DNA of 63,738 nucleotides, filler included, from Collodictyon triciliatum (taxonomy: Eukaryota): assembly GCA_043381765.1 (NCBI GenBank). It is 6 parts of 6 records of this genome, joined end to end, with 100 filler letters (N's around TTAATTAATTAA, not from the genome) between each part and the next. Parts side by side here need not be neighbours in the genome. Positions count along the whole stretch, not along the records: positions 42,867 to 54,344 come from JBHJMP010000520.1; 5 more parts are not named here. One strand, 5' to 3'. The position numbers and the translations under genes were made by a program. A model generated the notes under the pieces. It saw only the letters and a list, made by a program, of their open reading frames with translations. It did not search any database and was not told the origin of the DNA. Each line of letters opens with the position of its first letter. Position 1 is the stretch's first letter. Below are positions 45,971 to 54,115 of the stretch, one piece after another.

Positions 45971-48900
45971 TTAATTATCGGCACTGCCAACCCCGGAGGC
46001 CGATGCGCCCTCGTTTGCAAGTAAGTTCTGGTCTACTTTGGCAACAAACTCGGAGATTTGAATGCTGTCGGGATGGTGGATTCCTCGTTCTCGGACAGAG
46101 AGTTCAAGCGCTGTGACATAATACTCGCGAGCTGCCAGCCATTCCTCTCGTCGGTAATGCACAGACCCGACGTTGCACAGAGCTGATAGTTTGTATGAAA
46201 GTGGTGGTGAAGGTGAGAATAAAGACTTTCATTTCATTTCTTGCTTCCTTCTTCGTTCAGAATAAAAAACCTCCTCCTGTCAACCATGATGATCGATTGA
46301 GCAACAAAGATAAAAACCTGTCGCCATGCGGTGAACCGGGAAGGAATTTATCGATGTTTGCAGGTGATTCAAAGCATTTTCAAAGTATGGGAATGCAGCC
46401 GTGTAATCTTTTTTTTCACAAAGAACGGTTCCAACATATCCAAAGAAAACATCCAATCTCTCTGTCGCCTCCGGATTCTACAAATTGGGCAGCGCAAAAG
46501 AAAGCAATTATATAGATTCCAATAAAATGATGATGATAATGGCAATCATAACAACAAAAGGATGATTTCTCATGAGGCATTTATTTTGACAAAATAGCGA
46601 GAGTGTCGTAGGTTTATACGTTTTCAATCTATTAGAGAAATTATAAATGTTCACAGAAACAGTGCGTACCTGAGATGCCAATTCTAGGATTTTGAGTCCG
46701 GTTCTGTGCAAATAGGTTTTTTTTTTTTTTTTGATGAGGGCATTGTATGTGGGATAATGATTGCTCATAAGATACTGACTAAAAAAAATTCGTGTATTTT
46801 AAATTACCCCAGAGCGTCGTCGATATTGATAGATAGTTGTGATGTGAAGATATTTTCCAAAATGAGGATAGAGGACAGGTGATTGAGTCCCTGCAGCCTG
46901 ACACTAATCTCCAACGCCGCCTGTAAATTTATGCGTTTGTGATAGAATACACGCAAAACGTGAGTAGATGTGTGGTGAGGTAGAAGAAAGAAAAATGTTC
47001 ATGCGATGGCTTGATGGATTATCAATAATAATAATAATAATAATAATAATAATAATAATAATAATAATAATAATAATAATAATAATAATAATAATAATAA
47101 TAATAATAATAATAATAATAATAATAATAATAATAATAGATTGATAGATAATAATATAGNNNNNNNNNNNNNNNNNNNNNNNNNNNNNNNNNNNNNNNNN
47201 NNNNNNNNNNNNNNNNNNNNNNNNNNNNNNNNNNNNNNNNNNNNNNNNNNNNNNNNNNNTTCGTTTGTTTGTTTGTTTGTTTGTTTGTTTGTTTGTTTGT
47301 TTGTTTGTTTGTTTGTTTGTTTGTTTGTTTGTTTGTTTGTTTGTTTGTTTGTTTGTTTGTTTTTCTAAGAACCAAGTTCGATTTTATGTAGAACGTGCGC
47401 TAGTGCGATGACACAAGAAAATAATCGAATGCTTATGAAAAAAAAATCGAATATGATAAGGGGATGGTACATTCATACCACATCTTCATCAGTCTTCTCT
47501 GGTAAAGGCGTCAAAATTTCCAAAGCTTTCAAAAAATGTTGCAATGCGCTGTTTGTCTATATTAGATTGTTATCGGAGAAAAGTGATCAGTGGCAATAAG
47601 GGTTAGGTGGTGGGGTTGTAAACCATACATTATGATATATGCCTAATGAGAACGAAGGAAAGTAGGTATGTATATCGAATATGCTTACATCATTCACGCG
47701 CACGTACGAGGCGGCAAGATTTTCCAAAACTGTTGCGGTAGTGCTATTGTTTTCTCCATAAATTGAGCTAATCAGGATGTATGTGACTTCATACAAACGA
47801 AGGGCTTGTGAGTAGTCTTGTGCCTGTGCAGCCAGACATCAATTAAAATGAAATCAGAGGTATTAGTACGACTGCATATTAGTTGGTGAACCATAACGGA
47901 AAAAATAAAAAAAATTCGAGAACATGTCAAGGTCGAAATAAACATGACAATATGCACCTCGCTACAGTTGTAGGCTATCATGTCCAGCGAGCTTGCCAGG
48001 GCATTTGTGTCAAAGTGTTGCAGGTCAAGACTGTGAATACAAATATGGAGAATATAAAATAAATAAGTAGAGAAGTCATATTCACTAATAAAGTTTTTTA
48101 TTTCTGGTTTCACTTTCTTAATCTTGAATTATGCCATTAGCATATTTCATCTAGTTATATCCACATCCACATCCACATCCATACATCCATACATCCATAC
48201 ATCCATCCATCCATCCATCCATACATACATACATACATACATACATACATACATACATACATACATACATACANNNNNACATACATACATACATACAAAC
48301 ATACAAAAAAGATAGAGAGAGAAAATAAGGTATTTGTACATTATTCCTTTTGCCTTTGAATCGGTCCATATTTGTGCCAGTTGGTAATAATATTCGCCGG
48401 CCTGAGAATATTTCTTGTGGTCCCTCAGAATACTGCCCAGCTTAAACAAGAAGCGAATGATTGTCGGGTGTGTTGGTCCCAAAATTGGTTGCCTAAGATA
48501 TTTGAATAATCGAGGCGCGTTGAAATGTAAGTAAAAAGTATGGAATTGGTTTGCTCTATCATCAAGTAGGGGATATGCATCCCACGGACGAACAGAACTA
48601 TTGGAAAAGGTTAAATTGCATACCGAGTTCTGTAGGAAATAAAACTACGAATTTATCTATCGTGATACTTTTTGATGAAAGCTATAGCGATGCATTACTT
48701 TTCGCGTAGTTCTCTTCTATAAAAGTCAAGACTTCTCATAAACTCTTCCTCACTGGCAATATTATGCGCAGGAATACCCTGAGGAAACTCGACACTCATT
48801 GGCACAATCTGCACAAACGAAGAGTGGTTATATTGAACTTATTTGAATGGAATATACACACTTATTTTTTAACAAAGTTATAAGGATATCGGGGCTCTAG

Positions 48901-49744
48901 GATAAATAATCAGGTTTGAGAGACTACAGGTATTCATTTATGCACAAGAACCAGGAAAATAATAAAGAAATCTTTTACATTAGGGACAAAGACGATGGAG
49001 CCGGTATTTGGAGTGCGATATGCTTGCAGAGGCCTTGTCTTTGCGGAAAAACTAGAGTCACTCGAGGCATCCCTCTCGCTTGGGGGCATTCTTACATCCA
49101 GGAATTTGTCTTCTGAAATAACAATAACAATAATAATAATAATAATAATAATAATAATAATAATAATAATAATAATAATAATAATAATAATAATAATAAT
49201 AATAAGAAGAAGAAGAAGAAGAAGAAGAAAAAGAAGAAAAAGAAGAAGAAGAAGAAGAAGAAGAAGAAGAAGAAGAAGAAGATTTTACAACAAGCACATA
49301 ATGATACTCGAAAGAGAGAACAAGACTACTACATTTAAAAAATACTTCAAATATAAAAGAAAAGGTTTAAAAATATTAAAATTATCTCATGAGCTCTTTC
49401 TTACCTTTGATATCCTTTGTTTCTTGTGCTGCATTTGATCCAGAAAAATCACTTTTTGTATTAAACGCCTCAATTTCGGGTTCCTTTTGATTCTGAACGG
49501 TTTCTCCTGCCTTTGTTGACAGATTGGTGTCCGAGCGTGGCTTTGCGATGATAGGATTAACGCGACCAGAAGATGGAAGAGTAAATGAGCGCGATTGCGG
49601 CTCCATGATTGGGTTTATGCGGGATCCTGGAGACTGTTCTGATGTGAGTGCTTGTGATGCTGATAACTCGGTGTCGGATGGATTTGTCTTTGCAATAATC
49701 GGGTTCGCACGAACAGATTTTGATATTGTTGCTGCAGGAGAGTT
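45971..49744 (-). CDS. Low-complexity linker plus kinesin-light-chain/NPHP3-type TPR region. Probably the C-terminal part of the ANK-PAPase gene.
   Basis: 42-aa-type TPR units: FYRRELREKQPILGPTHPTIIRFLFKLG, LYEVTYILISSIYGENNSTTATVLENLA, YYVTALELSVRERGIHHPDS. Stop at 45971. Confidence 0.75.
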
Positions 49745-49839
49745 CTTTTGGACAAAAAAAATTGGATATTTAGACACCATTTAACGTGTTGGCAGTCTCA
49801 TATCGTTCGCTTGAATATTAGTATCATTCACAATTTTAC

Positions 49840-52525: not shown

Positions 52526-52809
52526 CTGTTGTGTAAGTTTTTTGTGTTTTTTTTTTTTTCATATTTTTTCGTTTGGAGCAAAAGCTATTGTAAGTATTTT
52601 CTTGATAATTCGATAGATGATATAACTATTTCATCGATATGACGTAACAATAAAATGATTCTGTAGCTGGTTTGTTTGTAGTTTGTGTTAGAAAGGGAGG
52701 TAAAATATTGTCTTGCACGATTACAAACTAAGATTCATGAACAAGTGAGTGCCGTTTTGTGAAGAGATGCATGACTGGGTTATTCAATTAGGGAGCAGCA
52801 ATCAAGTAC

Positions 52810-54115
52810 CAGAAGCAAGGAGACAATCTTGTGGTTGGCTGCGTCAGCGAGAGTGAGTGCAGTATTCTCTTCATTGTCCTTAATCCCCAAATCAATCCCG
52901 TAGCGGAGAAGTAAATGCACTATCTTGACATGGCCTTTCGTGGCAGCAATATGGAACGAAGTTTTCCTTCATATGAGAAAAACACCGTGATTTATTTTTA
53001 TTTGTTTAAAGTATTTCATGGGCCTTTTTTTAATTAGAAATAGGGAAAAGAAGCTTTTCTTTCTTTCTGACTCTCCATTTTTATTTTTCGGAGATTAGTT
53101 TCATGGGGTAGATATATATTTTTTTCCCCCTTTATTTGATTCACGAGGTGCATGATCAAATAAAAGTCTAACCCATCTAGCCTTGTCGCACTGACGTTCG
53201 CCCCATTTTGAAGTAAAACTTCGGCGCATTCGGCCCATCCTTTCTCAGCACAAATCAAAAGAGAGGTAAGACCTTGAAATCGGCTTTGTTGGTGGTTGAC
53301 ATTTGCCTTCGCACTGAGCAGAAACTTGATTCTGCATTGTGTAATAAAGATGAATACAGAATAAAATGACAGAAATAGAGATGAGAAGAAGGCGGTCAGT
53401 TATAAAATCGATTAAATGAAAAATCAAAAATCGTAAAAAGCTATTGAATTGCAAAAGAAAAAAAGAGAGGAATGTATGATTGTAATATGCTGAATACAAG
53501 CATTTGAGAATACGTGTTCACAGGTTTTTGTAATTATAAGAATAGTAATTTCCATATATGATATGGATTGCGAAATGGAAAAGTACATGTGTGGGTGATT
53601 TGCCCAGACAGCGTGCATAAGTGGGGTGTATTGCTGATAATTCTCTTGGTCGACCTCAGAGCCTGCATAAATAAGGGCCTGGACAATATCCAAATGTCCC
53701 TCTCGACAAGCCTTTTGTATAGGATATTTAATGTTATCATGTATCAATCTTGGTTGTTACGTAATGATGTGTATATACTGGTAGAGATATTAAGAATAGC
53801 ATGAAAAGAAATTACATGAAAAATATAAAGCGTCATAAGGAGACTTAAAAACATAGAATATGGTCGAAATGCAGTCTCGGATTTAGGCAATCGTTGAGAA
53901 GCACATTGTATGAACGTGAGTGCCAGTGGTAAGGTCTGGTCAAGTTAAAAAAAGAATGAAGTAAAACGAATGGCCAACCAGCGCCAAGGGGGTGTTCCCA
54001 TTCTCATCAGTGCTTTTTAGAAGACTGGAAGTGACGTCTGTGTGTGTCTGCAGAATCTCCTGCACTTTTTGGCTTTGATTGGCCCGAGCAGCCTTGGCGA
54101 GATCCACAAAGACTC
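52810..54115 (-). CDS. About five ankyrin repeats, probably the N-terminal part of the PAP phosphatase gene. 5' end uncertain.
   Basis: GNTPLALACREGHLDIVQALIYAG, YTPLMHAVWANHPHIIKFLL, GLTSLLICAEKGWAECAEVLLQNGANV, GKTSFHIAATKGHVKIVHLLLRYG, ENTALTLA. Introns are phase-consistent. Confidence 0.85.

Follow-up and report, generated by a model that had tools for sequence, protein, structure and literature searches.

A gene joining ankyrin repeats, a HAL2-type phosphatase, and tetratricopeptide repeats

We analyzed a 63,738-nucleotide stretch of DNA from the protist Collodictyon triciliatum (GenBank assembly GCA_043381765.1), here called the window, and describe within it a eukaryotic gene with many introns, which lies on the minus strand of a single contig (window positions 42867-54344; G000:C520, JBHJMP010000520.1). 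A first-pass annotation had read this gene as one tripartite fusion of ankyrin repeats, a 3'-phosphoadenosine 5'-phosphate (PAP) phosphatase, and tetratricopeptide repeats (TPRs). This reading held, as the joined 27-exon frame is open and a transcript-derived ortholog from Diphylleia rotans runs through both junctions between the parts. The fusion is almost certainly real and the product of one gene. As read from the sequence, the complete protein is about 1,125 amino acids long and consists of a start with glycine at position 2 (Gly2), ankyrin repeats, a HAL2/SAL1-type phosphatase, a linker, and a TPR array.

The window model runs from 54161 to 45971 with 27 exons and 1058 codons in a joined frame without an internal stop. 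All 26 introns have GT-AG ends and measure 95 to 558 nt (median, 174.5 nt), and the GC content is mostly 41 to 53% in exons and 16 to 36% in introns. When 24 exons were scanned singly, the Pfam matches followed the order ankyrin, Inositol_P, TPR_12 along the gene, with ankyrin over the cut-off in three exons, Inositol_P in three exons (one over the cut-off), and TPR_12 in four (none over). About five ankyrin repeats are encoded by four exons (54115-53979, 53711-53587, 53331-53173, and 52966-52810), the three introns of which were all spliced in sequencing run X1 (see below). A phase-0 intron of 284 nt (junction 1; 52526-52809) separates them from the 12 exons of the HAL2/SAL1-type 3'(2'),5'-bisphosphate nucleotidase domain (49840-52525), which has exon-level TIGR01330 matches on this contig. 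These lie at 52525-52442, 52325-52242, 52098-52011, 51791-51724, 51627-51596, 51416-51344, 51204-51102, 50975-50872, 50661-50580, 50442-50350, 50232-50175, and 49981-49840. A second phase-0 intron of 95 nt (junction 2; 49745-49839) leads to a low-hydrophobicity linker of about 155 amino acids in two exons (49744-49405 and 49112-48979; 48979-49744 overall). The TPR region of 42-residue repeats (45971-48808) follows in nine modelled exons, at 48808-48699, 48492-48340, 48030-47958, 47823-47689, 47556-47479, 46920-46808, 46703-46670, 46477-46318, and 46182-45971, and ends with the stop codon TAA at 45973-45971.

About 67 TPR residues of the Diphylleia ortholog have no exon in the window and map to the interval 47478-46921, which holds an assembly gap of 100 N (47160-47259). 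A search of the assembly for these residues gave three weak TPR-like matches (30 to 31% identity), none of them convincing. A short stretch, A-H-V-L-H-K-I (47399-47371), looks like the beginning of the missing part, but its phase does not fit the upstream donor, and it was excluded from the model. The spacers N44-TTAATTAATTAA-N44 (54345-54444 and others) join pieces that are not neighbors, and the first exon of the gene lies on contig C1865, not on the next window piece.

A Diphylleia rotans ortholog runs through both junctions

Among 18 long proteins recovered in a search for HAL2 domains, one combined Ank, Inositol_P, and TPR. This protein is Diphylleia rotans EP00002 P022209 (TRINITY_DN4348 isoform i1, here P0022; 1111 amino acids), from a Trinity transcriptome with five isoforms in the cluster. 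It is 60% identical to the window model over 895 amino acids, and as the longest isoform it aligns to all 27 exons in order. Junction 1 is crossed without a gap in the alignment and junction 2 in colinear order with an indel of 6 residues, and conserved residues stand right after each acceptor. Identity is 58 to 95% in the phosphatase exons, 68 to 75% in the three full ankyrin exons, 40 to 58% in the TPR exons, and 18 to 26% in the linker. In three shorter Diphylleia isoforms the point of departure from the frame coincides exactly with a modelled intron position, which indicates that intron positions are common to both species.

On rechecking the sequence, the coordinates, phases, and intron lengths first assigned to both junctions all proved correct. 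Junction 1 has a phase-0 donor (CTG/GTACTT) after 52810 and an acceptor (ACAG/TCG) at 52525, with splice-site scores that rank 8th and 19th, respectively, among the 26 introns. The junction-2 donor (CAG/GTAAAA, after 49840) ranks 2nd and its acceptor (AAAG/AAC, at 49744) 16th, so that the two junction introns are comparable in score to the remaining 24. If left unspliced, the junction-1 intron runs into an in-frame TAA (52782-52780) that would give a 218-amino-acid ankyrin-only product. At junction 2, 47 nt lie between the read-through stop (49830-49828) and a rival in-frame ATG at 49780. Another ATG, at 52562, is one base out of frame ahead of a run of 13 A and could be a rival start for the phosphatase given a homopolymer sequencing error; it is disfavored by X1 record 1 (below) and by the ortholog.

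RNA contigs at junction 1

Contigs from four sequencing runs of a near-identical organism were aligned to positions 51940-54190 only. The nature of run X1 as RNA is the guess of the tool, and its contigs do skip introns: five of the six modelled introns in the interval are listed splice joints. Run X2 gave two contigs and runs X3 and X4 none, and missing cover was not interpreted. The X1 contigs fork at the junction-1 donor. Record 3 (depth 18.9) ends exactly at 52810, record 2 (depth 9.7) overlaps the last 30 letters of record 3 and continues into the intron to 52632, and record 1 (depth 6.64), taken as spliced to 52525, aligns there from its letter 31 and leaves 52526-52547 uncovered. In the depth bin 52776-52851, the excess over records 2 and 3 was 2.59, equal to 29.6 letters of record 1. 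Because of this residual depth and the absence of cover beyond 52525, record 1 most likely starts with the last 30 ankyrin letters, that is, with a spliced junction 1.

Reads across 52810/52525 had been proposed as a check on the fusion; X1 supplies the splice in inferred form and not as a listed joint, since the short side has 30 letters. Read-through of the ankyrin frame toward the TAA at 52780, which the first-pass annotation had counted as a sign of separate transcripts, is also seen in X1, beside the spliced form rather than replacing it. No well-matching X1 contig was found inside the other five modelled introns of the interval. The fork points to a pair of products, the fusion plus the 218-amino-acid ankyrin-only form, or else to RNA with a retained intron.

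The end of the X1 contig at 52632 could mark an ankyrin-only mRNA made by intronic polyadenylation; no AATAAA signal was found in 52779-52560. X1 has five listed differences from the genome, of which three are synonymous. In one X2 contig (depth 3.8), a second donor appears about 49 nt into the intron 52241-52099 (52192-52241), which would add an in-frame stop. Over the whole region, X1 holds a fraction of 0.21 of the sampled words, where the ankyrin and phosphatase exons by themselves can give at most 0.134 and the full set of exons 0.281. Because 0.21 exceeds 0.134, the linker and TPR exons are present in X1, which by itself does not show them joined to the rest.

The first coding exon and a myristoylation-type start

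The loose RNA end at 54116 has a single exact match in the genome, close to one end of contig C1865 (G000:C1865). A 49-nt first coding exon at this place (L009:1483-1531) has a phase-1 GT donor that fits the acceptor at 54115 and starts M-G-A-S-S-S, with the nearest in-frame upstream stop 108 nt away. We rejected the ATG at 54161 as the start because the RNA enters at 54115/54116 from another contig. The consensus for N-myristoylation is Gly2 with Ser or Thr at position 6. The Diphylleia protein begins M-G-V-G-A-S, and both species fit this consensus, having Gly2 and Ser6 in common although positions 3 to 5 differ. These three positions are small in both species, as in the high-affinity UNC119 rule for myristoylated N termini (PMC8246649, available part). 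Lipidation of the fusion protein by myristate is predicted from these N termini. The suggestion in the first-pass annotation that the enzyme is possibly targeted thereby gains support from an exon outside its view.

The start M-G-x-x-x-S/T is carried by the three best-scoring of 38 HAL2-type representatives, and by 4 of the 34 with a Met start versus 1 of 111 others; this comparison covers the best 150 representatives found with the ortholog, and the 111 others are ankyrin-rich proteins, not a random control. C1865 also holds a divergent upstream gene (L012:772-1964, minus strand) with TPR exons resembling those of kinesin light chain and a stretch resembling calponin homology, as judged by eye from the list of open reading frames.

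The phosphatase domain

HAL2/SAL1 enzymes hydrolyze PAP to AMP and phosphate with Mg2+, are a lithium target, and are treated as soluble single-domain proteins placed only by organelle import. PAP inhibits sulfotransferases and XRN exoribonucleases and is a stress signal in plants. Ortholog P0022 scored 388.6 bits against TIGR01330 (cut-off, 267.05) over model positions 4 to 355 of 359, and the CysQ and HisN models fell far under their cut-offs. The window domain is 77% identical to the Diphylleia domain, and the full-domain TIGR01330 score is that of the ortholog. The metal-binding motifs EE, DPxDGT, and WDH and the loop K-x-D-x-S-P-V-T-x-x-D are all present in the window model. In a 67-row alignment of HAL2-type proteins, E283, E284, D338, D341, T343, W484, D485, H486, K250, and D260 are invariant in all rows, and H431, S455, K458, R472, and Y479, which line the PAP site, are the majority residues. 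Arabidopsis SAL1 (AtSAL1) contacts PAP through K140, R144, D146, D258, and K262, with K140 described as a gate residue (available part of PMC13621325); the fusion keeps R144, D258, and K262, has Glu for D146, and has Leu for K140. From what is known of the family, the middle domain is probably a Mg2+-dependent, Li+-sensitive PAP phosphatase.

The linker and TPR region

The linker contains the motif R-x-N-P-I-[I/M] in three copies in the window (49405-49744) and two in Diphylleia, and no other protein among 205 fetched has it. We regard it as a candidate docking motif. The region before the TPRs is 54 to 64% Pro, Ser, Thr, Gln, Glu, and Ala; no Pfam family matched the linker exons in the single-exon scan, and with a linker exon as the homolog query 0 of 207 candidates passed. 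The best autocorrelation lag in the ortholog TPRs was 42 (lags 25 to 59), and both TPR_10 (77.2 bits) and TPR_12 (116.1 bits) were over their cut-offs. The Pfam model TPR_NPHP3 matched at 1.7e-13 with 50.9 bits, under its cut-off of 100. In the ESM Atlas, the TPR part fell into generic TPR clusters at 0.95 to 0.97; the ankyrin and phosphatase part gave only ankyrin matches at 0.82, none of them shown with Inositol_P.

Distribution of the architecture

Using the ortholog from the ankyrin end to the linker as a query (8000 candidates scored; proteins of 611 to 1945 amino acids), we found Inositol_P in 39 of 45 matches, and Diphylleia alone also had Ank or TPR. Among the 205 fetched proteins, 87 match the phosphatase part, and a second part is matched by only five, every one a Diphylleia isoform. 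A whole-protein search of 50%-identity representatives gave 112 ankyrin-rich and 38 HAL2-type proteins in its best 150; since even the Diphylleia protein is not among them, the lack of further fusions in this set counts for little. In the organisms searched, the combination of ankyrin repeats, phosphatase, and TPRs was found in none beyond Collodictyon and Diphylleia. The literature searched, mostly open access, gave no account of a bisphosphate nucleotidase joined to ankyrin and tetratricopeptide repeats, nothing joining a BSD domain with HAL2, and no relevant Diphylleia ankyrin protein, and "myristoylat" with HAL2/SAL1 terms gave only broad plant reviews among the matches listed. The first-pass annotation knew of no description of this architecture, and beyond the unnamed Diphylleia entry the literature and databases searched agree. 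The accompanying view that SAL1, HAL2, and CysQ are normally stand-alone enzymes stands in that this combination was otherwise found only in Diphylleia, and needs correction in that HAL2 forms with additions are less rare than it implied.

Other long HAL2 forms (P0001-P0003, P0005, P0007, P0013-P0017) include a DEAD-box helicase in three Mortierellaceae and EF-hands in two Rhodosporidiobolus, and brown algal entries have a C-terminal extension; many of the long forms may be merged gene models. Since such entries exist, added domains alone are not unique to the fusion. Five amoebozoan-type HAL2 proteins (P0088, P0093, P0101, P0148, and P0226) have an M-G-x-x-x-S/T start and a common short C-terminal domain without a Pfam match, and three of them have a BSD match (two over the Pfam cut-off, one under). 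Two trees, the first built from 67 of 107 hits and the second from 33 of those 67, did not resolve the backbone. One clade of the rows with a myristoylation-type start was not rejected (approximately unbiased test, p-AU 0.35, or 0.58 without Mastigamoeba), nor was a clade of the fusion with the stand-alone copy described below (p-AU 0.65).

A neighboring sulfotransferase and a stand-alone HAL2 gene

The next gene downstream, on the same strand and contig, encodes a sulfotransferase (PF13469; 42950-45269, minus strand) dependent on 3'-phosphoadenosine 5'-phosphosulfate (PAPS). Its probable ATG lies 701 nt past the fusion stop, and its 3' end runs off the contig. The N-terminal 19-mer is hydrophobic (mean Kyte-Doolittle value, 1.86) and is followed by basic residues. 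Sulfotransferases are the kind of enzyme that makes PAP. Assuming 20,000 genes and 12 to 50 sulfotransferase genes, the chance of such adjacency is about 0.1 to 0.5%, for an adjacency spotted after the fact. A gene of the UNC119 family is also present in the assembly.

Nine candidates scored in the assembly gave two HAL2-type loci, the fusion and a 339-amino-acid stand-alone gene on contig C1849; two further Inositol_P loci are, by our own reading of their motifs, inositol monophosphatase-like. The assembly holds two types of genes, one intron rich with a GC content at third codon positions (GC3) of about 0.4 and one with few introns and a GC3 of 0.8 to 0.9 (porins, RPL19, and the stand-alone HAL2). 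Examples lie at window positions 6877-8826 and on contigs C1849, C545, and C3272, and both types occur in window piece 1-9019, across N gaps. A check for a second eukaryote found one eukaryotic 5.8S rRNA (39 scored of 2095 candidates) and one RPL19 among four candidates (GC3, 0.92), and these leave a second eukaryote as the source of the stand-alone HAL2 unsupported. We lean toward an origin of the C1849 gene in the same organism as the fusion. A second 5.8S-family match (L028, C10621:802-956) resembles the start of a bacterial large-subunit rRNA, and because of it bacterial contigs are probably present in the assembly.

Interpretation

Because the phosphatase is joined to binding repeats and a predicted fatty-acid anchor, it probably works at a fixed cell site and not loose in the cytosol. 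On balance, and with moderate confidence, we favor a membrane-tethered, scaffolded PAP phosphatase that drains PAP where it is made, since a sulfotransferase gene adjoins and PAP inhibits sulfotransferases, with the animal enzyme gPAPP as a precedent. Myristate together with ankyrin and TPR partners would keep the enzyme at a membrane's cytosolic face, close to sources of PAP such as the product of the adjacent sulfotransferase gene or a site of PAPS/PAP exchange. The fusion would drain PAP locally while the stand-alone HAL2 copy does bulk housekeeping, and the short ankyrin-only product could compete for the same site. That PAP inhibits sulfotransferases, and that animals clear it in the Golgi through gPAPP, is described in the available parts of PMC7216085 and PMC8268124.

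Several observations weigh against this interpretation. Sulfotransferase matches occur on at least 11 contigs of the assembly, the adjacency was recognized only in hindsight, and in eukaryotes the proximity of two genes says little. The stand-alone gene has a GC3 of 0.86 to 0.89, versus 0.44, which puts its origin in the same organism in doubt. The position of AtSAL1 K140 is Leu in both species, as in 12 of the 67 rows and in Entamoeba 4HXV. For the gene structure, the support at junction 2 is the Diphylleia ortholog alone; at junction 1 the short side of 30 letters is below the 31-letter bridging rule of the tool, so that the joint is absent from its table, and the read-through contig is deeper than the spliced one (9.7 versus 6.64), although contig depth cannot rank the forms.

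The fusion could also be real and do something else. Its working substrate might be an inositol polyphosphate, attacked as a 1-phosphatase in a membrane signaling complex while the stand-alone copy removes PAP; we consider this unlikely, since the PAP-site residues H431, S455, K458, R472, and Y479 are kept and the neighboring gene is a sulfotransferase, even though a membrane anchor with ankyrin and TPR repeats suits signaling, a stand-alone HAL2 exists in the assembly, and plant SAL1/FRY1 has both activities in vitro (available part of PMC3197580). A slightly smaller chance attaches to a flagellar or basal-body cargo carried by UNC119/ARL3, loosely like NPHP3, that clears PAP or inositol phosphates there. 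The small residues at positions 3 to 5 in both species would fit the UNC119 rule (PMC8246649, available part), an UNC119-family gene is at hand, and TPR_NPHP3 matches at 1.7e-13. That match reaches only 50.9 bits against a cut-off of 100, however, and the UNC119 rule is loose. Similar starts in amoebozoan HAL2 proteins, including that of Stenamoeba, which lacks flagella, argue that the anchor is not specific to flagellates.

Less probable again is a slowed phosphatase serving as a PAP sensor that switches ankyrin and TPR binding, possibly through docking back of the R-x-N-P-I linker. The replacement of Lys by Leu at the site of AtSAL1 K140 in both species, a motif conserved in an otherwise 26%-identical linker, and a stand-alone copy that could free the fusion copy for such a role would all suit it, but every invariant metal ligand is kept, no part is better conserved than this domain (77%), and 12 of 67 family members have the same Leu. 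Least probable of all, and very unlikely, is a gene split in this species, either an ankyrin-phosphatase ending at 49828 plus a linker-TPR gene from ATG 49780, or three genes, with the phosphatase starting at ATG 52562 if the 13 A are miscalled. In-frame stops do lie beyond both donors, the ATG at 49780 keeps the frame, an X1 contig reads into the intron 52809-52526, and of the two junctions the RNA alignment covers junction 1. Against this stand an ortholog that is one chain over both junctions with conserved residues after each acceptor, an X1 record 1 that begins on this stretch exactly at 52525 without covering 52526-52547, and a space of 47 nt that leaves no room for a terminator and a promoter.

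The tethered PAP phosphatase might belong to a broader group. Tentatively, and with considerable doubt, we propose an unrecognized class of N-myristoylated HAL2 phosphatases with added domains, in CRuMs (ankyrin/TPR) and Amoebozoa (BSD), that would be a cytosol-side counterpart of gPAPP, here coupled to the neighboring membrane sulfotransferase and tuned by the ankyrin-only isoform. CRuMs are a deep eukaryotic lineage next to Amorphea. HAL2/SAL1 enzymes set the PAP level, and if one of them is lipid anchored and scaffolded, such a lineage would remove PAP locally, at membrane faces turned to the cytosol; the similar amoebozoan N termini suggest a habit wider than CRuMs. Protists often have domain fusions specific to a lineage, and this one, whose function is inferred, is known from only two species.

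Comparison with known systems

The nearest solved relatives, found with Diphylleia isoform P0019, are Entamoeba 4HXV (E value, 9.2e-74), Arabidopsis SAL1 8F9Y (9.7e-62), and yeast Hal2/Met22 1K9Y (1.4e-55). These are single-domain chains of 325 to 357 amino acids without ankyrin or TPR, in contrast to the fusion of about 1,125 amino acids with both, and we know of no myristoylation start in Hal2/Met22, SAL1, or the Entamoeba nucleotidase. Amoebozoan-type long HAL2 proteins (Stenamoeba EP01102_P008807, Mastigamoeba EP00727_P013714, MMETSP Transcript_4118, and JGI entries) are among the closest matches to the catalytic domain of the fusion and have an M-G-x-x-x-S/T start with additions on both sides, but these are an N-terminal BSD domain or none and a short C-terminal domain, without TPR, where the fusion has ankyrin repeats and TPRs.

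The first-pass annotation called the TPRs kinesin light chain type. The 42-residue repeat type (TPR_10/TPR_12) is indeed common to both, but only the repeat type fits, and the protein itself is no kinesin light chain: none of the six PDB matches at E ≤ 1e-8 is one, and a Pro/Ser/Thr-rich linker, judged by composition, precedes the TPRs in place of the heptad region. Animal gPAPP/BPNT2 is lumenal and held by an N-terminal transmembrane segment. In the fusion, the first 16 residues are by eye polar and acidic and lead into the ankyrin repeats; with this polar Gly2 start it would face the cytosol, whereas gPAPP/BPNT2 is Golgi resident and of another subfamily. gPAPP/BPNT2 (IMPAD1) offers a precedent in working, a PAP phosphatase stationed at the organelle in which sulfotransferases generate PAP (PMC7216085, available part). 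NPHP3 is a myristoylated TPR protein (PMC8246649, available part), as is predicted for the fusion, which scores far under the TPR_NPHP3 cut-off. The Diphylleia protein has the same domain order, intron positions, and Gly2/Ser6 start as the window gene; its entry is an unnamed transcriptome protein, not a described one, with a linker merely 18 to 26% identical to that of the window. By sequence, then, the HAL2/SAL1 phosphatase family is known, and its combination with ankyrin repeats and TPRs behind a Gly2 start is new, in two related protists.

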